Of a stretch of 22,768 bases of DNA, positions 3,804-20,986 are shown in pieces (the stretch's first letter is position 1; every line of letters starts with the position of its first letter). The position numbers and the translations under genes were made by a program. The DNA lies in assembly GCA_019058015.1 (NCBI GenBank), contig JAHLWH010000112.1:1-22768 (forward strand), written 5' to 3'. The notes under the pieces were generated by a model. The model was not told the DNA's origin and did not search any database. It worked only from the letters and a program-made list of their open reading frames with translations. Origin of the DNA: Promethearchaeota archaeon (lineage in GTDB: Archaea > Asgardarchaeota > Lokiarchaeia > Sigyniarchaeales > SOKP01).

Positions 3804-6800
3804 TTACATAAAATTAAAAATTCCAGAAATTTGCAAATAAAGTAAAATCCCTGTTAAAATAATTAAACAAATAAATATTAATGTGGTAAAAAATCTCCAT
3901 TTTATTGAGATACGGCCTCGTTTTTCTTCACGATAAATAAAAAACAATAAAATTGCACCAAAGACAATGATTGAGAAAAGTATTAAAAATATATTGGGAG
4001 GTATGAAGCCAAATAAAGTTCCAATAACTGAGCCATAAATAATACAATAATATATCATTTTTACCCGGAAACTACTTTCAGGGTCCCCACTAGCTATCTC
4101 ATGCATAATTGGATAAGCCAATAAAAATGAAACAACCAAATCAACTGGCAAAGCATGAAACCAAGCTAAGTTTAGTGGGGGTATTCCAATATTTTCTTCT
4201 AATAAGATAAATATTACTATAAAAATGATGATAATAATTATCCCCCAAATGTATATCCAACTTTTCTTTAAGAAATCAATAAATCTATTATAAGCATTTA
4301 AAATTGCGATTTTTATCGAATTAAAGAAATTTACAATTATCATCTTTAACGCTCTGAACTTTCTCAAAAGATAATCGACTATTTTACCAAATTGTTCTTT
4401 CAATTCTTCAAAAAAGAATATAAATGGATATAATAGAAGGGTAATTACAAAGAATACTGTACTCCAAATATAGGATAAAGAAAAATAATAAACAATTACG
4501 CTTAATGATAAGAAAGTAGCAATCCAAAAGAGAAGTGCTCGTAATGAATGTTTTTTAAATGGTTTAATATCAATAGCAAGAAAAGTTAAAAGAATCAACA
4601 TAGCTACACTTAAATTAAATGGCCAATTTGTTATGTAGGGTTGTAATAAAAGTCCTAAATATAGAAAACAATTTAAAGAGAGTAAGAATCCAAGAAAGAG
4701 AAATGATATTCTTCTAAGATTTAATCTTAACTTCTCTTCAAAGACTCCGATGTTGATATCGACATAACACAAAACAAATAATATTACTGAAGAAAGAATA
4801 ATCAAATTAAGGATAACTAAAAGATCTAAACTAGTGAAATATAAAGGCCAAGATATGAAATTTATGTATAAAACAAATAACAAGAATCTTTTAATCTTAT
4901 TTTTATTAGTTCTGATTATTTCTATATTCCGTAATAAATAAAACAAGTAATAGAATTCAATTATTAGGAATATTATTATTAATGGGATAAATGCAACGAA
5001 AAATGTAAAGATCCAATCTATAAACATTATGGGAGATATCATTATCAATATCCAGGAAACAATTTTAATAGAATCTGACCATTTTGATAGTAAGAATTTA
5101 AATAAATATAGATCAATTATCATCATAAGATGAACCACAATACTTAATAGCATTATTTGAGATTCAATTGGTGCAAAACCTAATGCTCTTTGAATAAAAA
5201 TAAATAAAAATAGATAAAATATCAATCCTATAATTCCTTGGACGAATAATTTCTTATCATTAAGGGTTTCGATTTTTTTATAAAATCTAGACATAATAAA
5301 AAACTGCTTAAGTGTTGAAAACAATGCATAATTAGTATAAAATTGCATTGTAAAAAATAAAAATAAATTAAACCAGAGAAGGTCTGGGTTGATTAGTAAA
5401 AATTGGTTTAAAAATAAGAGTAAAAATATAGATAATAACAAATAACTTAGTGTATGAATTAAATACCCATATCTTTTCCTAAAATTCTTTATAATATATA
5501 GTTCGAATATTGATAATAAAAAGAGTGTTATTAAAGAAATTAATGAACTTCCAAGAAATCCAAAACTCTCAAATAGATTGTAAATTAATAGTATTAACTC
5601 AATATATAAACAAAATATAATCAGTGAATATCCTTTTGCTTTAAAATCAAGATATTTTTCTTTAAAATATAATTGATTTACTAAATATATTGAGTAAAAT
5701 GAAAATGCACTCTCAATTATTAGTAATAAGCTTATATTGAAAAAATTTAGAAGTAGAAATGTCTCAAAAATTGTAATCCAATACATTGCGAAAAGAATTT
5801 GAATTAAAATAAAAAGAAGAAATTCAATCTGGAGAACAAATTTAATTTGAACTATTTTATTATAAATTAAGTTTGAAAAGAATAATAACACTGCAGATAA
5901 TAATAAGAAAAGTAATGTGGTTGGATAACCAATCAATAATTCATTAATACCTAAAATTAAATTGGATATTAATGATGCAAAATAAAATGAATTCATTATA
6001 AGAATAGAATAAATCAAACAAACCCTTAGGAAAGAGCTTATTTTTTTATATTTTACATCCATTTGGGATAGAAAATATGTTGATATCAGATTTAATAGAG
6101 ATAATGTTAATAATAAAAGAAAAATATCCAAATGGAAAAGATATAGATATATAGAAAATAAATTACATCCAACAAACCAAGACCAAAGTATTATCTGATT
6201 CCTTATTTTTGGAATCAAATATTTAAAAAGATACTTATCAATAACATAACTCTCGAAAAATACCATACTACTTGCTAATAAAGATATAAAAAATAATGAA
6301 TACAAAATTTCAACCTCAATCTCTATTAGAAAAATCAAAACATTAAGGAGAATAGCGGTTGGAAGAATGCAATATAAAAATAAACTCAATCCATTCAAAA
6401 ATTTTGTTAATGGTTTGACTTTTAATTTAATTCCAGATAATTCTATATATTTCAAAGAGCATAATAATAATGTTGACCAAATTATTAAAAATTCAAAAAT
6501 CTGATTATACCAAGAAATTGGAGTAAGAACTGAAATCCATATCGATATAAATAAAGAATTAATGATAAAACATATAGAATTTAGAATTCTTAATATGAGA
6601 TCTTTCTGAATTATTTCTAAATATTCATTTTTAATTTTAATTCTTCCTTTTTTGACCAAATTACTGAATAAATTAATTATGACCTGCAAAAAACTAAAAT
6701 AGACCATTAACCATGTTATAATTCCGATAGTATGAATTATTGGAATAAATAATAGGAATGCTTGAATAAGAAAAGTTAGAGGAAATGGAACTAGAAACAA

Positions 6801-9800
6801 TAATACAAATCTATATTTATCTAAAAGGGGATAGAAAAATAAAATTAACACTGAACTAAAAATGAAACAAATAAACATTGGAGACCCTTGAATAAAAGGA
6901 AATAATAATGACGTAATTGTCAAAGAAGTTCCAAACGCCATAATTGTCCAGGGAATTGCTTTATTAAAACTAAAAATCATTTTTTCATATCGATTAAAAA
7001 CGAAGAAGGTACCTCCAAATATTGCAATTGCAAAAAATATAGAAAATAGTTCAAATCCTGGTATAATAAAAAACGAGAAAAGTGTTAATAAAGAGAAATT
7101 AATAATGAATATAATCGAAATAACAAAATGAACATATTTTTTGTTTAATTTCAGATATTTTGATGAAAACATGCTAAATCCTAAAATGATAAAGGAAATA
7201 TTGACAGCGATAAATGGATTGAGAAGAATCGCATGTAAAATAAAATAAATTAATAAAAACATTCCAAGCAAAAATGTTATATAGGAAAAAATAAGTATTG
7301 TAATTTTACTTCTTATCATAGGAAAATACGAATAAATCATGGAAAATAACCCTATAGCGATAAGAACAATGGATGTAATAATCTCGGGCAACATATTTAA
7401 AAATATTAAATAGAAAATTAAAAACACAATATTGATTCCACTTAAAAGAATCCATAATTTTGAAAGAACCTTCCAATACTTTAATTTGTAGATTATTGGC
7501 ATTAATAAAAAGATTGAAATTATTGTAAAAGAAAGATAAGTGAGAAGAAAGTTCTCTCCAAATATATTAAAGACAATCCATGCAACCAATCCAAAGCTTT
7601 CAATCCAGAAGAATAATAAAATTAGACCAAAGTGTGCCTTAATTTTTGTGTATAGAACTGGTAAATACAATAATGAAGAAATTAAGATTGAAATGATTAA
7701 TGACCCGTTAAAATCTAATGTTCCAAAAAATGTAATTGCATTAGTATATATATCGATATCAAGGAATATTCTATAAATTACGACAAAATTAACAATAGGA
7801 AATAAATTCCACAGCCACCATCCTGCTTTCCAAATTGCCCATGATATCTTCCATTTATAAATTCCAATTGAAATGTAAAAAAGAAAAATTCCTAGATTTA
7901 ATGAGATAATTAGAGGAAAAGGTTCTTCAAGGGGAATTGGTAAATAGTATGTAAGTAAAAAAAATAAGAATGTTGGAAGCGATATAGCAATTGCAGTTAA
8001 AAATGTATAGAATGAATATTTTCTATATTTCTCAGGAATTTCATTAAATAATAAAACAAATCCGAATCCTGTTATGCTTAAGGTAAAAGTAAAAATTAAA
8101 ATATTATTAATTAAATCATCTACAGGGAGTATAAACAAAAATTGATAAGAAAAGTAGCTAATTATATCAAAAATAATTAATACAATTAAAGTTTTCTTAT
8201 ACAAATGATAATTTTTATCGCCAATACGACGAAGGAAAACGGAATAAAAGAATAAAATTATTCCAAGCGAAATAGTGATATTATATAATAATAAAATATG
8301 AGTGAAAGTTAAGAAAAAGACAAAAGATATTGCAGAAATTGATCCATACAAAATAAATTCTTCAAGATGGGAATGCTCTTTGAGGTTTAAAATTATGGCG
8401 AAAAATAATACACAAGATAAAGATACTAAATATTCTATAATAAAAAATCCTAGAGGGATCGGCTCAAAAACAGAGAAATCAAAACCTGAATATATATGAA
8501 ACATTAGATAAAATCTTAAAAATGTGATATAACTAAGTAAGAAAATATTTAAAACTCTTAAAATCAAATTTTCATTTCTAACGCGAAAAATTATAATATA
8601 AAGAGGAAAGAGAAAAATGAAAGAAATAAGGGGCTCTATATAAAGAAGACTGATGAAAAGCAATAAATTGAGGGAAAATAATTCAATTAATCGAAATTTG
8701 GACTTTTTTATTTTTAGAGAATAATTTTTTATGAAACAGTAATTAAAAAAAATAAAAATGTTCACACATAGAGTTCCAATTAAAATAATTGGATTTTCAT
8801 TAAAGAATGAAAAATTTATTGCAAACCCCCAAAATACTTCAATAAAAAATACAAGCAATGAACCGATAAACGTAATAATAGTGATATTTTCTATAAGTAT
8901 TATGTTCTTATCCAATGAAATTCTTGCTTTTTTTAGATATGAAATGGTTATTGGTGATAAAATCGAGAAAATTGCAATAAAAAATGTGATTTTGTTAAGA
9001 ATTGAAAATGGAAAATAATATGAAATCAAGAGAATAAGAACTATTTTTACATATAACCAAGAGACTAATTCAATAATTTCTTTTACTTTGAAAAGTTCAA
9101 ATCTAAGAATTAATTCGCTTATCTTAAATAAAATTAAAATTGATGAGAAAAATGAAAGAAAATATATAGCATAATTCAATAAAGCAAGATCTGGTGGAAA
9201 TATAATTATTAAACTAATAAAATTGTGAAATAACAACATCACTAGGTAAGATAACGTAAAAGTAGACCCCAAAAAAATTATGTTATAGCATGTTTTTAAA
9301 GATCTACTACTGATAATTCCCAGTTTTTGCATCTTTTTTAATGTATAAATATTAAAAAAGAAAAAAATCAAAATCGATATTGAAATTAAAAACTCATTAA
9401 TTATAATTGAAAGAAAAATTACTGACGTTGAAATAGAAATTAAAAACCAAACATATATCTGTGATTTACTTATTAACCTCTGATTAACTTCTTTATATTT
9501 ATAACGAACAGATATATATTCTAATAATTTCAAAAAGCCAAATATCAAAAATAGCGTACAATTTAAATCAATTAAAATAAGAAATATACTAAAAAGAATT
9601 AACCCTGTATTTAACATATCCAATATGATAATCGTAGGAAGAATAATAACAGAAACCGATAAAAGGATATTATCTATTGCAATTAATTTTTTAAGCCAAT
9701 TCTCATGAATTAATTTTTTATAAAAAATATAATAAATTGGAAGATATAAAATAATACATGACGAAATCACAGGAACAGTTAATAAATAATAAGTTCCGTA

Positions 9801-11966
9801 AAAGAACAAAAAAGAATAGTAAAAAACTATAATGGAAAGGAAAATTAATGAAAAACTTGTGAATTTAATTATAAATTCTCTAGAAAAAAGTTCCTCTTTA
9901 AGAGAAAAGATATTAACTAACATACAAATAATTGCTGTTGATAAAAATATAGAAATTAATAAAAATGAGAAATTTAAAAGAAAGACTAATTCAAAGAATA
10001 TGTAAAATAAGATTGTAAATAATTCGCCAGCAACAATGTATGAATTAAACCTTACATAATTCTGATATTTTGAATTCGCAATTTTGCCTAACTTTACTCC
10101 AAATTTTAAAAGATAATGAAGTGTAATTGAAAAATATAATAGATCTAATAATAGAGCTATAATATTAAAATAAACAGAAATAATTGAAATAAAAATAGAA
10201 GCGAATAAAAACCAAGAAGCAAAATAACTATAATTAAAGAAATTTCCTTTAGAAAAGATTCCAATAAGGTAATTAAGAAATGTAAACAAAATAAATAACA
10301 AAGGGAATAAGATAGATGATATTATTAAAGAATTAAGAAAGAATCCAGGATCTACAGGAACCACAAGGAAATAAATTCTAAAATTAATTAAAATAAATAG
10401 AAAAATTTCTATTAAAAATGAGATAACGGTTAAACTTTTTTTAAAAAATTTTGACGCTTTTCTATTAAATCTACTAAAATATAATCGATACAAAGAACTT
10501 AGAAGTGCAATTAAGAAGATTAATGCATTTATGAAAATTTGAGAATAAAATATAATGAAAGGATCTGAAGTAAAAACAATATATGCACTAAATATAAAAG
10601 GAAAAAATAAATAAAGAATAAGGAAAAAGCTAGAAATTATAAGAAAATCTTGAACAATCGAAGCATTTCTTTTGTCAAGTAATTTAATTCTTGCAAAAAT
10701 TTCTAGAATAAAATATAAAACTATAAAAAATATAATTAATTGTTCATTCCAATTTAATTGCAAGATTCTGAAACAAAAAGAAGCTAAAATAATAATAGTA
10801 TTTGTCATATAGAGGATTCTGTTATATTTTTTATTCGAAAATCCAGCCCTTTCCTCTAAATAAAATAGAATATTAATAAAAATGAGTGATAAAAATGCAA
10901 GAATTGGAAAATCCAAAAATAATAATAATGAAAATATACTAGTGATTAATGTTAATGAAAGAATAGAATTGATTTTTAGACGATTTTTACGTTTTTTTAA
11001 TTTCTTTTCTTTCCTTTCTTCACTTGCCAGTGCTATATGGTGTGTATAATGAAAATATACGTATAACTCAACTTTAAGAAAGATTATAATAAGGCATAAG
11101 ATAATTAATGATACATTAAATAATTCTAAACCTGAAAGTGGTGGCATTACTGGGCTAAATAGTATATGCAAAAGCATTAATAGAATTGAAATACAAAATA
11201 GAAGCCCAACATTAGAACTAACTAATTTTTGTTTAAATTCAATTAATTCATTTAAAAACTTTTGATTTTCTTTTATTGCATTAGTAATTCTAAAACGGAC
11301 ATTTCTTGTAATGAAGAGCGTAATTCCATAAAAAAATATATTTGTAATAATTAAATAAAACCAAGATAGTTGAGTATAAGATATAACCGATAAAAATACA
11401 ATTTGGATTATATAATTAATTATAAATATGAAATTGTGTAAATTGGTTAATATTGAAGTTATACCAACTGAATGTTTAAATCTCTTATCTTTATCACCAA
11501 ATAAATCAACTGGCTTAAAATAAATATAAAACCAAGTGATATTATAAATTACTATAAAAGCAATTAAAGGGAAAAGTCCAAATTTTCCGGTTTGCCATTG
11601 AGAAGTAATAATTTCAACTATTGGCGTTAAAATAACAGCCGCAAATGTGACAAAATAAGAAATATGAATCCTGGCAACTAAATTATTTTTTATGTTCTTA
11701 AAAAATGGTTTATCCCGATATCTATCAAAACCGATATAAAAGAAAAATAATGAAAAAGTGAGGGCTAAAAGTGAAAAAGCGATTGCAAAATCTAAATCTG
11801 CTTGTCCCGTAATTTGAATCGTTATAAAATCCGTAATATAAAAAGTTAATAAAGCACAAGCTATTGGAGCAATAATTAAATAAAAACAAAACCACCAAAC
11901 TTTCCAAATAAACTCTGTTGCTCTCCTAATTCTCTCTTCAGAATCATTTGATGATTTTGAACTCAT
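3804..11966 (-). CDS. Giant polytopic membrane protein (2720 aa), unknown function
   Basis: Uninterrupted 8.16-kb ORF of alternating hydrophobic helices and short basic loops. AGGTGTG SD-like motif upstream of the ATG. 28 bp from the downstream same-strand PCI gene. Confidence 0.88.
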   Translation of the reverse strand: MSSKSSNDSEERIRRATEFIWKVWWFCFYLIIAPIACALLTFYITDFITIQITGQADLDFAIAFSLLALTFSLFFFYIGFDRYRDKPFFKNIKNNLVARIHISYFVTFAAVILTPIVEIITSQWQTGKFGLFPLIAFIVIYNITWFYIYFKPVDLFGDKDKRFKHSVGITSILTNLHNFIFIINYIIQIVFLSVISYTQLSWFYLIITNIFFYGITLFITRNVRFRITNAIKENQKFLNELIEFKQKLVSSNVGLLFCISILLMLLHILFSPVMPPLSGLELFNVSLIILCLIIIFLKVELYVYFHYTHHIALASEERKEKKLKKRKNRLKINSILSLTLITSIFSLLLFLDFPILAFLSLIFINILFYLEERAGFSNKKYNRILYMTNTIIILASFCFRILQLNWNEQLIIFFIVLYFILEIFARIKLLDKRNASIVQDFLIISSFFLILYLFFPFIFSAYIVFTSDPFIIFYSQIFINALIFLIALLSSLYRLYFSRFNRKASKFFKKSLTVISFLIEIFLFILINFRIYFLVVPVDPGFFLNSLIISSILFPLLFILFTFLNYLIGIFSKGNFFNYSYFASWFLFASIFISIISVYFNIIALLLDLLYFSITLHYLLKFGVKLGKIANSKYQNYVRFNSYIVAGELFTILFYIFFELVFLLNFSFLLISIFLSTAIICMLVNIFSLKEELFSREFIIKFTSFSLIFLSIIVFYYSFLFFYGTYYLLTVPVISSCIILYLPIYYIFYKKLIHENWLKKLIAIDNILLSVSVIILPTIIILDMLNTGLILFSIFLILIDLNCTLFLIFGFLKLLEYISVRYKYKEVNQRLISKSQIYVWFLISISTSVIFLSIIINEFLISISILIFFFFNIYTLKKMQKLGIISSRSLKTCYNIIFLGSTFTLSYLVMLLFHNFISLIIIFPPDLALLNYAIYFLSFFSSILILFKISELILRFELFKVKEIIELVSWLYVKIVLILLISYYFPFSILNKITFFIAIFSILSPITISYLKKARISLDKNIILIENITIITFIGSLLVFFIEVFWGFAINFSFFNENPIILIGTLCVNIFIFFNYCFIKNYSLKIKKSKFRLIELFSLNLLLFISLLYIEPLISFIFLFPLYIIIFRVRNENLILRVLNIFLLSYITFLRFYLMFHIYSGFDFSVFEPIPLGFFIIEYLVSLSCVLFFAIILNLKEHSHLEEFILYGSISAISFVFFLTFTHILLLYNITISLGIILFFYSVFLRRIGDKNYHLYKKTLIVLIIFDIISYFSYQFLFILPVDDLINNILIFTFTLSITGFGFVLLFNEIPEKYRKYSFYTFLTAIAISLPTFLFFLLTYYLPIPLEEPFPLIISLNLGIFLFYISIGIYKWKISWAIWKAGWWLWNLFPIVNFVVIYRIFLDIDIYTNAITFFGTLDFNGSLIISILISSLLYLPVLYTKIKAHFGLILLFFWIESFGLVAWIVFNIFGENFLLTYLSFTIISIFLLMPIIYKLKYWKVLSKLWILLSGINIVFLIFYLIFLNMLPEIITSIVLIAIGLFSMIYSYFPMIRSKITILIFSYITFLLGMFLLIYFILHAILLNPFIAVNISFIILGFSMFSSKYLKLNKKYVHFVISIIFIINFSLLTLFSFFIIPGFELFSIFFAIAIFGGTFFVFNRYEKMIFSFNKAIPWTIMAFGTSLTITSLLFPFIQGSPMFICFIFSSVLILFFYPLLDKYRFVLLFLVPFPLTFLIQAFLLFIPIIHTIGIITWLMVYFSFLQVIINLFSNLVKKGRIKIKNEYLEIIQKDLILRILNSICFIINSLFISIWISVLTPISWYNQIFEFLIIWSTLLLCSLKYIELSGIKLKVKPLTKFLNGLSLFLYCILPTAILLNVLIFLIEIEVEILYSLFFISLLASSMVFFESYVIDKYLFKYLIPKIRNQIILWSWFVGCNLFSIYLYLFHLDIFLLLLTLSLLNLISTYFLSQMDVKYKKISSFLRVCLIYSILIMNSFYFASLISNLILGINELLIGYPTTLLFLLLSAVLLFFSNLIYNKIVQIKFVLQIEFLLFILIQILFAMYWITIFETFLLLNFFNISLLLIIESAFSFYSIYLVNQLYFKEKYLDFKAKGYSLIIFCLYIELILLIYNLFESFGFLGSSLISLITLFLLSIFELYIIKNFRKRYGYLIHTLSYLLLSIFLLLFLNQFLLINPDLLWFNLFLFFTMQFYTNYALFSTLKQFFIMSRFYKKIETLNDKKLFVQGIIGLIFYLFLFIFIQRALGFAPIESQIMLLSIVVHLMMIIDLYLFKFLLSKWSDSIKIVSWILIMISPIMFIDWIFTFFVAFIPLIIIFLIIEFYYLFYLLRNIEIIRTNKNKIKRFLLFVLYINFISWPLYFTSLDLLVILNLIILSSVILFVLCYVDINIGVFEEKLRLNLRRISFLFLGFLLSLNCFLYLGLLLQPYITNWPFNLSVAMLILLTFLAIDIKPFKKHSLRALLFWIATFLSLSVIVYYFSLSYIWSTVFFVITLLLYPFIFFFEELKEQFGKIVDYLLRKFRALKMIIVNFFNSIKIAILNAYNRFIDFLKKSWIYIWGIIIIIIFIVIFILLEENIGIPPLNLAWFHALPVDLVVSFLLAYPIMHEIASGDPESSFRVKMIYYCIIYGSVIGTLFGFIPPNIFLILFSIIVFGAILLFFIYREEKRGRISIKWRFFTTLIFICLIILTGILLYLQISGIFNFM

Positions 11967-12108
11967 ATTTCTGGTAACACACCTAATTATAATTTAAATT
12001 ATTAAACAAAATTTACGGTTGGAGAACTCCTATTATGATTTATTTTTTATCAGAAAATAATTATATTATTATACCAAATAATTCTTTCTCTTTTATTAGT
12101 ATTTAAAA

Positions 12109-12262
12109 GATTTTGAGACCAATATTTGTCACAAAATAATTATATTTTTCAACATTTTTAAAAAAAGCTATGAAATCTTATCACTCTATAATATTATAGA
12201 ATTAAAGGAAATAATTATTGTAATTAATAAATTATTGTTTTTTTTTATAATAGTAATATTAA
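12109..12262. repeat. ~154-bp imperfect direct repeat, copy 1, containing palindrome TCTATAATATTATAGA (12185-12200)
   Basis: Aligns by eye with 13002-13155. A 34-bp core AATCTTATCACTCTATAATATTATAGAATTAAAG is identical in both copies. Confidence 0.9.
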
Positions 12263-12315
12263 AACATAATTAGATTAATAAAATGTATATAAAATTTTAA
12301 ATATTAACTATTTAC

Positions 12316-12963
12316 ATGAATAGTGAGAAGATCTCAGCAAACGATATTCAAGGGGATGCAATGAGCATATGCAATCAACCTCTTTCAGAATGTAACGATT
12401 GTGGTCTTAGCGAAGTTCTGATGTGTAAGTATGAAGTTAAGGATGCAATCATCTTTTTGATACCCTTCCTTATTGCTTTCATTCCGGCCATTATTGGAAT
12501 TATTTCATCGGGCTATGGCTTGTGGCTCATTGCATACTTCGGATTTATGATATTCTTTTTTATTGTATGGGAAAACCGGATACTATGCAGTCATTGCCCG
12601 TACTACGCCGAAGAAGGGAAAACTCTCCGTTGTCACGCGAACTATGGCTTACCTAAAACTTGGAACTATCACCCAGAACCGTTGAGTCGCTCCGAACAAA
12701 TTCAATTCCTAATAGGAGTATTAATTATAGTTGGATTTCCTATGCCTTTCTTGATTATTGGAGAACAATATTTGATGTTGACAATCTCAGTAGTAGGGGT
12801 AATACTCTGGTTATGTGTTTTACAATTAAGGACCTGTAAAAAATGCATAAATTTTTCTTGTCCCCTAAATCGCATTCCTAAGAAAATAGTAGACGAATAC
12901 CTCAAGCATAACAAGGTTATGAGAAGCGCGTGGGAGAAAACAGGGTACAGAATTGCAGATTAA
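12316..12963 (+). CDS. Cys-rich 4-TM membrane protein, hypothetical (possible metal binding)
   Basis: Two TM hairpins. Cys motifs CNDC, LCSHCPYY, CHANYG and CKKCINFSCPLN. Visibly GC-richer than its flanks (28/60 GC in 12601-12660). Confidence 0.8.
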   Translation: MNSEKISANDIQGDAMSICNQPLSECNDCGLSEVLMCKYEVKDAIIFLIPFLIAFIPAIIGIISSGYGLWLIAYFGFMIFFFIVWENRILCSHCPYYAEEGKTLRCHANYGLPKTWNYHPEPLSRSEQIQFLIGVLIIVGFPMPFLIIGEQYLMLTISVVGVILWLCVLQLRTCKKCINFSCPLNRIPKKIVDEYLKHNKVMRSAWEKTGYRIAD

Positions 12964-13001
12964 TCTACTTTAATTGGATGTGCAAAATTCCTGTAAGAAA
13001 T

Positions 13002-13155
13002 GATTTTGAAACCAATTTTTTTGTCAAAAAAATTAATTTTTTCAATTTCTTAAAAAAAGCTATGGAATCTTATCACTCTATAATATTATAGAATTAAAGA
13101 AAATAGTTATTGTAATTAATAAACATTGATTTTTTTTTCATAACAGTAATATTAA
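13002..13155. repeat. ~154-bp imperfect direct repeat, copy 2, containing palindrome TCTATAATATTATAGA (13077-13092)
   Basis: Second copy, ~893 bp downstream of copy 1, starting 38 bp after the stop of the Cys-rich gene. Confidence 0.9.
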
Positions 13156-13180
13156 TATTAAATTGACTTGTTGGTTTCAT

Positions 13181-13199
13181 AAAAACAGATGCTGTTTTT
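13181..13199. promoter_or_regulatory. Short inverted repeat AAAAACAG-atg-CTGTTTTT upstream of the ThiS/MoaD-like gene
   Basis: 8-bp arms with a 3-nt spacer, 23 bp before ATG 13223. Could be an operator or terminator, but it is AT-rich and may be chance. Confidence 0.3.
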
Positions 13200-13222
13200 T
13201 ATTTTCTGAATACACATAAAAG

Positions 13223-13522
13223 ATGCCAATAAAAGTAAAATTGTATGGAGATTTAAGAGAAAAGGCGTCTAAACATAATTCCAATGCAGGTGCTCCAAGC
13301 ACATTGAATCTTGAAGATAATGAGATAAAATTTGTATTTGATATTCTAAAGAAGTTTAACATAGAAGAAACAGAAATTAGCCATATTTTTGTAAATCATA
13401 AATACAGCGAACCAAGGAAAGAAGTCAAAGATGGAGATAGAGTTGGTTTATTCCCAAAGAATATGGGATTAATCTTCGTGGAAATAATCCAAAATAATTC
13501 GAATTTGGATTCTAAATATTAA
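13223..13522 (+). CDS. ThiS/MoaD-family ubiquitin-like (beta-grasp) protein lacking C-terminal Gly-Gly
   Basis: IKVKLYGDLRE...IFVN...VKDGDRVGLFP is the MoaD/ThiS/SAMP pattern. It ends FPKNMGLIFVEIIQNNSNLDSKY instead of FPPxxGG. Confidence 0.82.
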   Translation: MPIKVKLYGDLREKASKHNSNAGAPSTLNLEDNEIKFVFDILKKFNIEETEISHIFVNHKYSEPRKEVKDGDRVGLFPKNMGLIFVEIIQNNSNLDSKY

Positions 13523-13934
13523 ACATTCTGTAAGGAACCCCGAAAAAGGTGTCTCCCCCAATGATACTCTTAATTTTATTCCGAGTAGTAATTGTATCAT
13601 AATAAATAAATAATTGTCCCTTTCCATCACATGGTTCATTAATTTCAACAAAAACAAATTCAGGACTCGTATTTTCAATAGATGTAATAACGTCCTGATG
13701 TTCCTCAACTATTTCTCTCACAGTCTCAATACTTGGATAGTCTTCACAAGAAGGCCCTAAATTATCAATATAAGTCATAATAGCACCATAAGATATAATA
13801 AGCGATAGACTTCCAAATACAACTAAAATGATTATTAGAGCGTAAAGAATGTGTCGATTTTTTCTTTCATTTAAAGATTTATTATTTTTAAAAATTGCAT
13901 TTAAATTTGATTTCTTTGAAGAATCTTCAGACAT
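13512..13934 (-). CDS. Hypothetical membrane-anchored protein
   Basis: N-terminal TM helix, then a small domain with two Cys and a C-terminal TFFGVPYRMFNI. Overlaps the ThiS-like gene tail-to-tail by 11 nt. Confidence 0.75.
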   Translation of the reverse strand: MSEDSSKKSNLNAIFKNNKSLNERKNRHILYALIIILVVFGSLSLIISYGAIMTYIDNLGPSCEDYPSIETVREIVEEHQDVITSIENTSPEFVFVEINEPCDGKGQLFIYYDTITTRNKIKSIIGGDTFFGVPYRMFNI

Positions 13935-14194
13935 ATTATTCTTTCCTAGGTTAGAATTTTCGAAAAAATCATAAAATAGAAGATGAATTGAATCGTACCA
14001 ATAATTAAGTAATAGAATAATAAAAATTTATTCTATTATTCATTTTTTCTTCGATTAAGTAATTTCCGTTGGAATTACAGATATATATTGAGTTAATTCA
14101 ATTTAATGCCCATCAACTAATAGATTTTGAAATTACCTAACTTTAGTATAATGTTTTTCATAATATTCTCTTAAAATACTCTTAATCGCAATAA

Positions 14195-15304
14195 AAAGAC
14201 TATTTATTAATTGATCGTATAAAGTATGCTATTGTCTTAATAGAATCGAAAATTAAAAAACTCACGGATATAGATCCCAAACCTGATGTTATAATAATAT
14301 CTGTTCCTAAAGAAATCTTAAAATCTTGTAGAAGTCTTAAATATAAGCATACTAATAGAATTTATCTCATAAAACGGCAATTTGATCTAGGTTTGAAAAA
14401 CTATAAAGATGGATATAATTTTCATAATCTAATAAAAATCATAGGAATGGATAATGGCATCCCTATACAGTTAATTTATCCAGATACACTATTTCCAAAT
14501 CCTAAAGTAAAAGGGAGACAAGATTTGGCGATGATTGCTTGGAATCTAACTGTAGCTCTATTATATAAAGCAAATGAGATACCGTGGAAATATTTTGAGT
14601 TCCCAGATAGCACTTGTTTTGTCGGTATCTCTTTTCATAAAGAATTCGATGATAATGACGAGCAGATCATGAGAGCAAGTGTGGCTCAAAATTTCCTTTC
14701 AAACGGTAGAGACATTGTTTTAAGAGGAGATAGATTTGAATGGGATACCAATATATCAAAGAGTCCGCATATGAGTGAAGAATGTACAATTGATTTAGTG
14801 GAGAAAATACTTTCTAAATATAAAGAACATTGGGGAAAATTACCAGATAGAGTTGTAGTGCATAAAATTTCTGAATATTGGCCGGATGAATCAAGAGGTT
14901 TTGAAGCAGCACTAAATAATGTGAATAAAGCAGATTTAATAACTATTTCAGATACAAATATAAGATTTTTTAGACTTGAACAAATGCCAGTTGTTAAAGG
15001 TACTTTCATTAATTTATTTGGTAGATATTATCTATATAATGTTGGTTATATTCCTTGCTTAGAGGTGTATCCTGGAAGTAGAATTCCATCGCCTATCGAA
15101 ATTAAATTTCATAGGAATGATGAGGATCCTATTAAAATTTGTAAAGAAATAATGGCTTTAGCTCGTTTAAATTGGAACAATATTGATTACTCTACTAAAT
15201 ATCCAGTAACGATGACTTTTTCGAGAAATGTTGGCGAAATACTCTCAGAATATAGAGCTAAATCATTACCAAGAATTCCTGATAAATATAGGTATTATAT
15301 GTAA
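14195..15304 (+). CDS. ago: Short prokaryotic Argonaute (MID-PIWI, catalytically inactive), apparently 5'-truncated
   Basis: Frame is open from 14195 (369 codons), 66 codons before the track's TTG, and includes PDVIIISVPKEI. MID pocket FHNLIK...PIQ...LYKA. PIWI motifs CFVGISF, PDRVVVHK, PSPIEI, EIMALARLNWN, PVTMTFSRNVGEIL and C-terminal YRYYM. Confidence 0.92.
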   Translation, partial: KDYLLIDRIKYAIVLIESKIKKLTDIDPKPDVIIISVPKEILKSCRSLKYKHTNRIYLIKRQFDLGLKNYKDGYNFHNLIKIIGMDNGIPIQLIYPDTLFPNPKVKGRQDLAMIAWNLTVALLYKANEIPWKYFEFPDSTCFVGISFHKEFDDNDEQIMRASVAQNFLSNGRDIVLRGDRFEWDTNISKSPHMSEECTIDLVEKILSKYKEHWGKLPDRVVVHKISEYWPDESRGFEAALNNVNKADLITISDTNIRFFRLEQMPVVKGTFINLFGRYYLYNVGYIPCLEVYPGSRIPSPIEIKFHRNDEDPIKICKEIMALARLNWNNIDYSTKYPVTMTFSRNVGEILSEYRAKSLPRIPDKYRYYM

Positions 15305-15411
15305 AGAAGGTAAATAATAAAAATACCATTATATTAGGGAGATCTAAATATTAATCGTTTTAAATTATATTATTTATAAATATATTAATAGATTAAAATG
15401 GTGAAATCGTT

Positions 15412-15744
15412 ATGCCTAAGAAGTCAAAAACTATAGAAAGAATATGGAATTTAAAAATTTTTAAGCAAAAAACAATCACTAAAGAAATTTATGAAGAGAA
15501 TAAAGATGGAATTAGAGAGATAATGGACAATTTACTGATTGTTGTTGAAGAGCCCGCATTATTTAATTATGAAGCACATTGCGAAGATTTTAAGCAATTT
15601 ATTAAATTATCTACAAAAATTTTAAAATATTTAGATACGGATGAAAGAAAATTTGTAACTAAAATAAATAAATTCACAAAAGAAAAATGTAAATCTGTAT
15701 GGTCTGTTAAACCTCGAGTAGTAATAGATGAGGATTTTTCTTAA
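15412..15744 (+). CDS. Hypothetical 110-aa soluble protein downstream of Argonaute
   Basis: ATG preceded by a GGTGA SD motif. Same strand as ago, 107 bp downstream. No recognisable domain. Confidence 0.7.
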   Translation: MPKKSKTIERIWNLKIFKQKTITKEIYEENKDGIREIMDNLLIVVEEPALFNYEAHCEDFKQFIKLSTKILKYLDTDERKFVTKINKFTKEKCKSVWSVKPRVVIDEDFS

Positions 15745-15759
15745 ATTTAATAAAGTCTT

Positions 15760-16590
15760 TTATGAATCATTCATCCATTCCATAAATCCCTCTCTTTCTG
15801 GTCCCTTTGGCCAATCCTGATCGAGAATTCTTTTCTTCCTCCTTTTCTTTAATATATTTCTTAATTTCATTATTAATATGAAAAGAGGATAAGTAAATAT
15901 AATTATTATTATTAAGCAGATAAATATAATAATGTTAAAATTAAAAACATCGAAAGAATAAGAATGATCAATTCAATTATAATCATAACATAAAATGTTT
16001 TAAAATTTGATTCTGATTCTTTCATATATTTTAAATTTCTTATTATGAAATATATAAATAACCATTTTTTTAAATCGCTTTTTGTTTTTGTTTTACAAAA
16101 TCTTGCCAATAAACCTTGTAGATAATTATGTTCCTTATGATTACTTTGAAAAAATTCTGCTAGAGGTTGCCCAACTTTCCATATATTTTAGCCAAATTTT
16201 AATTCAGCTTTTTTTAACCCCCTCTTCTAAATCTTTATCGCTATTTTTCTAAAAAATTAATAAGAGATGAAGATTGTATATTAATGTATTTAAATTTTCT
16301 TTATTTTTGATTAAATAATTCTCTCGTGCTTTATCACTTGTTAATAACAATTTGAATTTTTTATTATCCAATATAATAATTTTTTTCTTTTTTAAAGAAT
16401 TTAATTCTCCAACACCAAATAATATATAGATTTGTATATTATCAATACTTTGCGTAAATTCTCATTCTAATACAATTCCAGATAATAGTGAGATATTAAG
16501 GACTTTATTAAAAGAAATCCCACAATAATTACTAATTTCTTGAATCCTTTCAGAATTTTTTTGTATTAATTCTACTTCTCTTTTTTTCAT
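15760..16590 (-). pseudogene. Decayed ~275-codon gene with C-terminal TM helices
   Basis: From ATG 16590 (MKKREVELIQKNSERIQEISNYCG...) a protein-like reading continues through TGA 16464-16462, TAG 16251-16249, a frameshift at an A7 run near 16210, TAA 16190-16188 and a frameshift near 15914, ending ...DQDWPKGPEREGFMEWMNDS* at 15760. It includes the track ORF 15912..16109. Confidence 0.55.
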
Positions 16591-16662
16591 AATTATCACT
16601 ATGATTTTTATTGGCTTTCTTATAAAATGCTCATATTTAAAAGAAAAAAATGCTGAATGTAT

Positions 16663-17241
16663 CTAATGTATCCAATTCGCAGGTCTGATTTCGAGAGGTA
16701 TGATAACCCTAGGGGAGGACTTATAATATTCAGACTCCATGACACGCAATTTTATGGTGGAAAGTCCCGGACCAAGCTTCTCTAACAATTTTGGAATGGT
16801 GTCGTTATCGATTGTGACTACCCATGCGTCAAGCGTCTTTTCTATTGGAAGCGTGAAAGTTTCTTTTAGCTGTCCGTTGGGATCTAAAATTTCGCAAAGA
16901 ATATGATACACGTAATTGTCGTTAAGAATGCTTTCTGGAGAGGGTTCGAGCTCTGAGGCTTCGTAAACTTTGGTAAGAGATGCTAAGGTGTTTCCGAAAC
17001 TACTTGGAATAGGATCTGCTTTTGTTACATAAGTATCGATTCTTAAGTCTTCGTATTGCTTCGTGACATTACCGTCAGGTAAGTCGTAAGAAATGTAATC
17101 TCCCGCACCGAGCGCAATATCGCCTTTATGAAGGTTAATAAGACCTTCTACATAAGTGCTATCGATGGTTAACATACTTGTTAGATCGATGAACTTCAAA
17201 TTTATCGACATTATTTCAATTAAAAAAGCAGAAATTGACAA
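16663..17241 (-). pseudogene. GC-richer coding segment, probably an internal fragment of a much larger protein
   Basis: Protein-like acidic/beta-rich translation. 26/60 GC at 16741-16800 versus 10/60 at 16381-16440. The composition switches abruptly near both ends, and no convincing start/SD is present. Confidence 0.5.
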
Positions 17242-20191: not shown

Positions 20192-20314
20192 GGTATCTAA
20201 TTCTATTCTTAAAGGAAGTATATCGATACAATAAATTTAATTGAAATTTCTTACTTTTTTATACTTCTTTTCGATTCGATATATTTACAATATTTTTTAT
20301 ATTTCTTCTTCCTT

Positions 20315-20986
20315 TTAACAATCTGTGGGATCCCAATCAAAGGTTACAAAAGCATCTTTTCCGTGATTATATGTATTAAATTCATATCCTCTAACAGAGC
20401 CCACAATCGATCTATCCCAAATCGCGAGTTCTATACCGTAAGCGCACTTTATTTTATCAGGACATAAATTTAAATTTCCAATCTCTTGACCAAGTCCTCC
20501 ATCGATGGCACCAATAATGCCTTGTTCATCAACACCTGGAATTGGATCATCATATCGAACTTCTTCCCCTATTTGTTCACCAGACTCTGTAATATTTCCT
20601 CCAAATATTTTTAATCGAAATTTTTTAAAATAGTCATCTCTGAAATTACCATAGATAAAGATTAAAGGTACTTCCCAGTCCTTATTTCCGATAAATGCAT
20701 CACATTTTTTATAATTTCCTTCGCTATCTTTGACAGTAACACCTTTAGTAGGCAGTGTTGGGGGTGGAGTACCACCAAACGTAAAAAGGTCAGGTTCTCT
20801 ATTATCCAGTATAAGTGAGACATCAGTTGTTTGTCCAGGAAGTGGATTTTTCTCTGCATCTGCTAATTCAAGCTTTAGCAAATATTTATTATCCTTTCCA
20901 TAATTCCTCCAATGTACCAAGGGAGCAAGACTATAGTTATCTATTTGAATAAAAAAAAGGTAAAAAAAACAATTAAAAATCATCAT
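20315..20986 (-). pseudogene. Probable C-terminal fragment of a larger extracellular beta-rich protein
   Basis: Protein-like from about DNYSLAPLVHW to ...CAYGIELAIWDRS...WDPTDC. The first ~14 codons (MMIFNCFFYLFFIQ) come from low-complexity A/T sequence, suggesting a lost 5' end. Confidence 0.55.

Follow-up and report, generated by a model that had tools for sequence, protein, structure and literature searches.

Short prokaryotic Argonautes (pAgos) form 1:1 heterodimers with a protein carrying an APAZ domain, and partners of the nuclease-APAZ type define clade S2B, according to the accessible parts of PMC9097488, PMC12738770 and PMC12205087. The closest described systems differ in what is fused to APAZ: HNH in SPARHA, DREN/DUF4365 in SPARDA and TIR in SPARTA. 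In its available portion, PMC9097488 describes short pAgos as devoid of the catalytic tetrad. Here we analysed a short pAgo gene fragment in a 22,768-bp stretch of DNA, hereafter the window, which is the whole of contig C106 of the metagenome-assembled genome G000 (3.84 Mb, 283 contigs, 94.4% complete). The G+C content of the window is 21-34%.

Segment 14212-15304 of the forward strand very likely represents a 5'-truncated, recent and most likely non-functional pseudogene of an Asgard SPARDA/SPARHA-like (clade S2B) short pAgo system. It comprises codons 113-476 of the full-length family plus a TAA stop codon, corresponding to the second half of the MID domain and the whole PIWI domain. At a single non-homologous join between positions 14211 and 14212, the Argonaute gene, beginning at its codon 113, abuts the final 25 codons of a native N-formylglutamate amidohydrolase (FGase) gene on the opposite strand; codons 1-112 were lost in this event together with the promoter and start codon, and the partner gene went with them.

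Argonaute Identity of the Open Frame

The open frame at 14195-15304 (+) consists of 369 codons plus a stop codon (15302-15304), is uninterrupted and is preceded by an in-frame TAA at 14192-14194. Its first in-frame ATG, GTG or TTG is the TTG at 14393-14395 (+), which would give a protein of 303 aa. No canonical start precedes codon 67, and ATT 14210 and ATA 14219 are in frame. The frame length, stop and starts, reported in an earlier sequence-only reading, were all recovered from the sequence and its translation, as were the motifs FHNLIK, PIQ, LYKA, VGIS, HKIS, FSR and YRYYM.

The frame matched the PADLOC pAgo_I profile with E = 4.4e-109 over positions 116-455 of 455, and the 346-position PADLOC pAgo model PDLC02392 matched the fragment end to end. 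A Pfam scan of the frame returned no family at E <= 1. The best match in the PDB was the SPARHA Argonaute 9om4_B (E = 1.1e-59, 205 bits, chain residues 124-471 of 471). SPARDA Argonautes came second with 182 bits (9qbp_B, E = 1.7e-52; 9qbl_B, E = 1.5e-49; 9jsb_A, E = 1.9e-44), and SPARTA Argonautes scored lower (117 bits, E = 5.8e-33 to 3.1e-28). The PIWI domain is homologous to that of short pAgos, as judged by PADLOC pAgo_I and by the PDB short pAgos (E from 1e-59 to 3e-28).

In the alignment with 9om4_B, residues H77 and K81 of the window copy fall opposite R and K in the '..lrraik..' stretch of that chain, which by chain numbering we take to be the 5'-phosphate-anchoring R180 and K184 given in the available part of PMC12738770. 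At the DEDX positions named in the sequence-only reading, the window carries the same residues as its full-length relatives, in an alignment that holds no catalytically active Argonaute. The HKIS string is private to the window: of 13 aligned relatives, P0018 reads QKSS and the other 12 read HK(S/T)S.

Missing N-Terminal Part

A search of a large protein collection yielded 102 Argonaute relatives at E <= 0.001. Relatives at 76-82% identity are 474-476 aa long (some gene calls are longer), and two of them carry the source names Promethearchaeota and Hodarchaeota, which fits the earlier description of the genome as Asgard-like. The window product aligns with these proteins from their residue 113, at the string IDRIKYA, with the preceding KDYLL unaligned; over residues 113-476 of P0002 the identity is 82% (tblastn). 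Alignment to full-length homologues, proposed earlier as a check, therefore places the missing part at residues 1-112, and the earlier estimate that the frame is about 100 or more aa too short holds against the 474-476-aa relatives. At the DNA level, homology to loci L008, L009, L003, L006 and L011 starts at 14209-14237, with the earliest start at 14209/14210; in three further Argonaute loci, either their own copy is cut or the alignment starts later.

The missing part was not recovered elsewhere. The first 125 residues of eight relatives, compared by tblastn with all frames of the window and with G000, gave only the 13-18 overlapping residues and genome noise at E >= 0.2 (lowest E 0.21). A hidden Markov model (HMM) of the Argonaute N-terminus was run against the 47,129 six-frame open reading frames (ORFs) of >= 30 aa of G000; its top hit, with E = 0.091, was to a second, unrelated Argonaute on contig C255.

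The AlphaFold model of P0002 (predicted local distance difference test, pLDDT, 89.2; predicted template modelling score, pTM, 0.90) places a strand at 2-5, a helix at 22-29, a strand at 38-46, a helix at 48-60, a strand at 86-95 and a helix at 98-105 within residues 1-112. Window homology begins at helix 112-131 of this model. If strands 38-46, 86-95, 139-143 and 198-201 are read as the four-stranded MID core, two of the four would be gone from the window copy. The copy has no complete MID domain, residues 1-112 being absent from the window and not found in G000. Nor is it an intact gene with its own start codon, as seen from the stop at 14192-14194, the lack of a canonical start before 14393 and the join between 14211 and 14212.

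The Join with a Truncated FGase Gene

Four genomes of the same genus and 24 other genomes of the family were available for comparison. The Argonaute was found in none of the four and in two of the 24 (G015 and G020). The left flank of the fragment is native: window positions 9501-13522 match same-genus genomes G004 and G002 at 92-94%, and 13421-14216 match contig C18 of G001, also of the genus, at 92% identity. From 14212 to about 16019 there is no match in the four same-genus genomes.

Both genes upstream of the fragment lie on the opposite strand. The first is a native 140-aa gene without a Pfam family at 13512-13934 (-), divergent from the fragment; its start lies 260 nt before 14195, as the sequence-only reading had described. 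In G001 its homologue is preceded on the same strand by an intact 242-aa ORF belonging to the Pfam family FGase (E = 5e-15), to which the 140-aa gene is the following neighbour. The second is an FGase stub at 14133-14211 (-), consisting of the last 25 codons and the stop codon. Its translation ends in ...LINSLFIAIKSILREYYEKHYTKVR before the stop and corresponds to the C-terminal end of the G001 ORF of 242 aa. The remainder of the FGase gene was not found in G000 by tblastn, which returned only a 36%-identical paralogue on contig C64.

In a three-way DNA alignment, the window follows G001 to ...TTATTAAT and thereafter follows the Argonaute locus L008, which sets the non-homologous join at 14211-14212. 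The blastn limits around it are 14216 for G001 and 14209/14210 for L008, and the sequence shared at the join amounts to only about 5 bases (AAT/GATC, within 14209-14216). The in-frame lead of the open frame at 14195-14211 (+), encoding KDYLL plus part of the ATT codon, is not Argonaute sequence: it aligns to the FGase 3' end of G001 and not to the Argonaute loci. Likewise, the in-frame TAA at 14192 sits in the antisense of the FGase stub. Because 14195-14211 is the antisense of the native FGase 3' end, ATT 14210 straddles the join. The window contains no tRNA genes. The genome-specific stretch is flanked only by short AT-rich chance matches, with no inverted repeats at the join.

The join may have arisen by deletion, or it may mark one boundary of a larger rearrangement. 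In the simplest reading, a deletion would have run from inside the FGase gene through the intervening DNA and the partner gene to Argonaute codon 112. Uptake of a foreign fragment through illegitimate recombination would look identical; we infer deletion in place rather than such an uptake.

The Join in Other Samples and Its Age

Logan contigs of four sequencing runs were placed on window positions 12800-16200. Run X3 comes from a different sample of the source's own study, and runs X5, X6 and X7 come from three other studies. In X3, a single contig of 3735 nt spans 12998-16200 unbroken, with 33 differences from the window. Of these, 31 are listed, none within 13964-15657, so at most two of the 33 can fall in the Argonaute part. 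Nineteen of the 31 listed differences cluster in 13268-13477, a 210-nt patch of a ThiS-like ORF (13223-13522). This patch has the appearance of a local tract of recombination between co-occurring strains.

The separately assembled X3 contig bears directly on whether the join was made by the assembler. A chimera of two organisms or loci, with the real gene at full length, could be suspected in a metagenome-assembled genome of 283 contigs. This explanation is extremely improbable: the X3 contig crosses the join, the bases shared there are far fewer than any assembler word, and no contig of G000 carries the missing 5' part. The join is not an assembly artefact; misassembly around 14195 had been raised as a possibility in the sequence-only reading.

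The contigs of the three other studies match the window to exactly 14211 and then depart from it. The X5 contig shows 25 differences in 1137 and continues with 81 letters unlike the window, X6 shows 18 differences in 639 followed by 582 such letters, and X7 shows 15 differences in 632 followed by 675. The X5 loose end, the one printed, is one letter off the FGase continuation of G001. Window positions 14282-15300 had no cover in X5-X7, which was not counted as evidence of absence. Divergence of the left flank from these populations without the join is 2.2-2.8%. As populations diverged by this amount have an unbroken FGase gene (one seen, X5), the join arose after that split.

Partner Gene of the Intact Relatives

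In all six relatives' loci with upstream sequence (L006, which is G020; L011; L013; L014; L009, partial; and L003, which is G015), a partner gene lies co-directionally and directly upstream of the Argonaute; L008, L010 and L012 are cut by a contig end. The partner is about 500-534 aa long and ends at or just before the Argonaute start (L006:7361-8893, L011:751-2259, L013:268-1872 and L014:1355-2935). In PADLOC it matches Aga_REase-PNTD1-PNTD2 or Aga_REase_Archaea, the lowest E being 8e-19. Five partners were scanned with PADLOC, and they match restriction-endonuclease-APAZ (REase-APAZ) and SIR2-APAZ models; only that of L014, the most distant, also matches TIR-APAZ, at residues 319-441 in its APAZ part. 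A profile of four partners matches the APAZ parts of 9qbp_A (DUF4365, E = 1.5e-9), 9om4_A (HNH endonuclease, E = 8.4e-7) and 9jsb_D (DREN-APAZ, E = 2.6e-4). For the AlphaFold model of the partner (pLDDT 81, 13-sequence alignment), the top fold matches, at E of 2.5e-13 and below, are APAZ chains from SPARDA, SPARTA and SPARHA, and the best is 9qbp_A.

Since the partners of close relatives match nuclease-APAZ and SIR2-APAZ models, the term 'SPARTA-like', used in the sequence-only reading, names the wrong branch. The term is also imprecise for the fragment itself, given the order of its scores (SPARHA 205, SPARDA 182 and SPARTA 117 bits); by their PADLOC labels, the relatives' partners are nuclease-APAZ and not TIR-APAZ proteins.

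The partner head, comprising the first ~225 residues, has invariant E63-D64, D69 and Q78-I79-K80, a motif that may be PD-(D/E)xK-like. It gave no sequence match in the PDB and no Pfam family above threshold; Cap4_nuclease appeared in one of 13 members at E = 0.022, below the cut-off. Among 81 loci (L006 and L008-L087) whose ORFs of >= 250 aa were screened, four have the head, and the large collection yielded 14 proteins with it. Several of the 14 are on contigs equal in length to those of close Argonaute relatives, which suggests co-location. Three of the 14 have a source name, in each case Hodarchaeota or Promethearchaeota.

Another copy of the system deviates from full length. At L003 (G015:C406, 829-2688, -) about 51 codons are missing in frame from the Argonaute, in a gap that ends just before the NRIERIKYA helix, which is where the window copy begins. 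P0005, otherwise identical to the L003 Argonaute, keeps this stretch. The L003 partner gene matches in two separate pieces, and by its sequence this copy of the system also looks damaged.

No partner was found for the window copy. The window contains no APAZ-effector gene in an operon with the fragment, in agreement with the sequence-only reading, which noted the lack of an adjacent APAZ gene and proposed a genome-wide search. That search was run on G000 and found none. When five partners of the clade were compared with G000 by tblastn, no hit had an E lower than 0.14; an HMM of the clade partner run against the six-frame ORFs had a best E of 0.024, and the PADLOC APAZ models PDLC02415 and PDLC02398 had no matches.

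Coding State of the Fragment

Several observations weigh against the pseudogene reading. The frame has 364 homologous codons without a stop or frameshift at 30% GC. In a maximum likelihood (ML) tree of 17 family members and 350 shared columns, the terminal branch of the window measures 0.10, compared with 0.10 and 0.11 for the intact sisters P0002 and P0003 (amino acids). Pairwise ratios of nonsynonymous to synonymous divergence (dN/dS) are 0.069-0.090 with the window and 0.049-0.127 in pairs without it, with dS saturated at 1.1-2.2. The guide 5'-phosphate pocket residues H77, K81, Q92 and K125, invariant in the alignment of 14 family members, are retained in the window copy. Finally, the assembly is incomplete: if an inversion took place, the two missing halves could both lie on a single contig that was not assembled.

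The open frame was examined by its expected survival under neutral change. In this frame, 5.1-5.6% of single substitutions would create a stop, and the probability that it stays open is 0.53-0.56 at 11 substitutions, 0.40-0.43 at 16 and 0.21-0.24 at 27. In 1093 nt, the flank divergence of 2.2-2.8% allows at most about 31 neutral changes, or about half as many on one branch; with about 11-31 neutral substitutions, the fragment would stay free of stops with a probability of roughly 0.2-0.56. An intact frame is expected because the join is young. The open frame is thus weak evidence of function, as purifying selection and a young join would both give it. The dN/dS values cannot date the loss because dS is saturated. 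At columns invariant in the other 16 members, the window has four private changes (I79L, T91I, Y197C and R268K), compared with one each in P0002 and P0003; these may be a weak hint of relaxation.

The same observations could be taken as signs of a working 'minimal' Argonaute that selection maintains. Its translation would start at TTG 14393, at ATG 14447 or at a codon outside the canonical set, and it would function by itself or together with a partner encoded in trans. The 364 open codons, the branch length and dN/dS values like those of intact relatives, and the retained pocket residues would suit it, as would the second Argonaute locus of G000 on C255, which has an Mrr-type nuclease. Nevertheless, this explanation is very unlikely. 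Upstream of 14212 the DNA is antisense to the 3' end of a different gene, two of four MID core strands would be gone according to the model, no APAZ protein was found in G000, and an open frame is expected if the join is young. The sequence-only reading had offered a minimal MID-PIWI Argonaute started at ATT 14210 or ATA 14219; this proposal finds no support, given the FGase origin of bases 14195-14211 and, by the model, the loss of half the MID core.

The candidate starts are not new features, as far as alignment tells. In the column of TTG 14393, TTG also occurs in L010, TTT in L008, L009 and L003, TTA in L006, and ACA or CCA (Thr or Pro) in L011, L012 and L013. The internal ATG at 14447-14449 (+) is ATG in all nine aligned copies and is a family-conserved Met and no new start. 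It is where the public gene call P0008 begins (14447-15304, 285 aa, 100% identity over 77% of the frame).

Natural 'minimal' forms were considered and rejected as a precedent. The 330-353-aa relatives P0044, P0048, P0084 and P0085 map to longer frames or to a frameshifted copy: L040, L041 and L045 have 548-565-aa frames behind a roughly 493-aa upstream gene, and L032 is the frameshifted copy. The roughly 493-aa gene is presumably TIR-APAZ, which we assume from its motif only. The model PDLC02392 may have been derived from short or internal-start gene calls.

The second Argonaute on C255 (L007, 2962-5253, +) has 763 aa, of which residues 294-748 match PADLOC pAgo with E = 3.7e-50. It shares 23% identity with the fragment and has no D at two aligned catalytic positions. 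Directly after it, at 5257-6501 (+), lies a gene for a 414-aa protein with an Mrr_cat nuclease domain.

It is very improbable that the fragment is translated from TTG 14393 or ATG 14447 into a PIWI-centred, half-MID protein with a new job, kept in at least two co-occurring strains. If true, the job might be, for example, that of a decoy or regulator binding the guides or partner proteins of other Argonaute systems.

An inversion that split the gene is another explanation to be weighed. The partner gene and codons 1-112, joined to the FGase 5' part, would then lie in unassembled DNA, and the split system would conceivably be reversible. A single missing contig could hide both halves because both would sit on one reciprocal junction, and the assembly, in 283 contigs and 94% complete, leaves room for it. 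The left flank maps to G004 C3:14.8-21.3 kb (+) and the right flank to C3:60.8-55.0 kb on the other strand; the right-flank segments 16474-16668 and 20265-20944 map to the left flank's G004 contig about 34-40 kb away. However, neither half was found by tblastn or HMMs in the 3.84 Mb, only about 5 bases are shared at the join, and there are no flanking inverted repeats. The region varies within the genus. Because G004 has no FGase at this place, little can be read from it about the ancestral gene order, and it cannot tell deletion from inversion. We regard the inversion as very improbable, and even if it were true, the window part would be headless.

Loss of the head and partner in a recent event remains the preferred reading. 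The sequence-only reading had proposed, as one of two options, a recently beheaded remnant of an abortive-infection system. The sharp join, the full-length, partner-linked relatives and the failure to find either the partner or the N-terminus in the genome bear this option out. We infer that no working protein is made from the remnant.

Surroundings of the Fragment

Downstream of the fragment, a 110-aa ORF lies at 15412-15744 (+) inside the stretch without a same-genus match; it is not common to the other Argonaute loci. Its relatives at E <= 0.001 are four proteins of 112, 76, 77 and 76 aa. This ORF was tried as a second truncated defence gene and rejected: its match to the C-terminus of PD-Lambda-5_A (E = 3e-4) is weak and probably due to chance, and its relatives have only 76-112 aa. 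The earlier remark that neighbouring sequences are decayed is correct for the FGase stub; it does not apply to the 110-aa ORF, whose relatives are of like size.

Other window genes encode the C-terminal part of a thiolase, an OB-fold protein, an ABC transporter pair and the ThiS-like ORF. Of the window proteins scanned, none gave a convincing defence-family match; those run through PADLOC were the fragment and two others. An ORF of 2720 aa at 3804-11966 (-) has no Pfam family at E <= 0.001, and positions 9501-12166, which overlap its 5' part, are about 92% identical in two same-genus genomes.

Meaning of the Loss

What the fragment records is the recent and unremarkable loss of a gene from a system of a known type. 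Its biological importance is small: it illustrates, in a case that can be dated, how a defence system is lost when one non-homologous join removes an effector gene and the head of a sensor gene. Where abortive infection carries a cost, losses of this sort are to be expected.

It also calls for caution with short 'MID-PIWI only' database entries, which can be fragments, internal-start calls or frameshifted copies, as illustrated by the 285-aa P0008, the 330-353-aa relatives and possibly PDLC02392. More interesting than the fragment are its intact relatives, which make up a small uncharacterised Asgard branch of short Argonaute systems with a nuclease-APAZ partner. This Argonaute family may already be among the Asgard Argonautes listed in the PMC11217426 supplements.

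Comparison with Known Systems

The intact relatives probably work like SPARDA and SPARHA. By analogy, the intact system would be a heterodimer in which a 5'-phosphorylated guide senses invader DNA, whereupon the nuclease would be unleashed.

SPARTA (PDB 8qlo, 8ifk and 8fex; described in the accessible part of PMC9097488) shares with this family the MID-PIWI architecture and the principle of an APAZ partner. In contrast to SPARTA, the partners of the close relatives match nuclease-APAZ and SIR2-APAZ models, and only that of L014 matches TIR-APAZ too. The TIR-APAZ partner that characterises SPARTA is absent, the window holding no partner at all.

SPARDA (PDB 9qbp, 9qbl, 9qbq and 9jsb; described in the accessible part of PMC12205087) provides the second-best Argonaute matches. 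Its 9qbp_A is the best match of the relatives' partner in both profile and fold, and the PADLOC label of the partner is that of a restriction-endonuclease-type APAZ protein. However, the sequence and fold matches to the partner cover the APAZ part only, the head of the relatives' partner is not recognisably DUF4365, and the window copy is fragmentary and has no partner. The order of partner followed by Argonaute, observed in the relatives' loci, is one that we assume to be shared by SPARDA operons.

SPARHA is represented by AcaSPARHA (PDB 9om4; described in the accessible part of PMC12738770). Its Argonaute 9om4_B is the best structure match of the fragment, and the profile of the relatives' partner matches the APAZ part of 9om4_A with E = 8.4e-7. 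The family differs from SPARHA in that the relatives' partner has no HNH head, and the window copy lacks both residues 1-112 and the partner.

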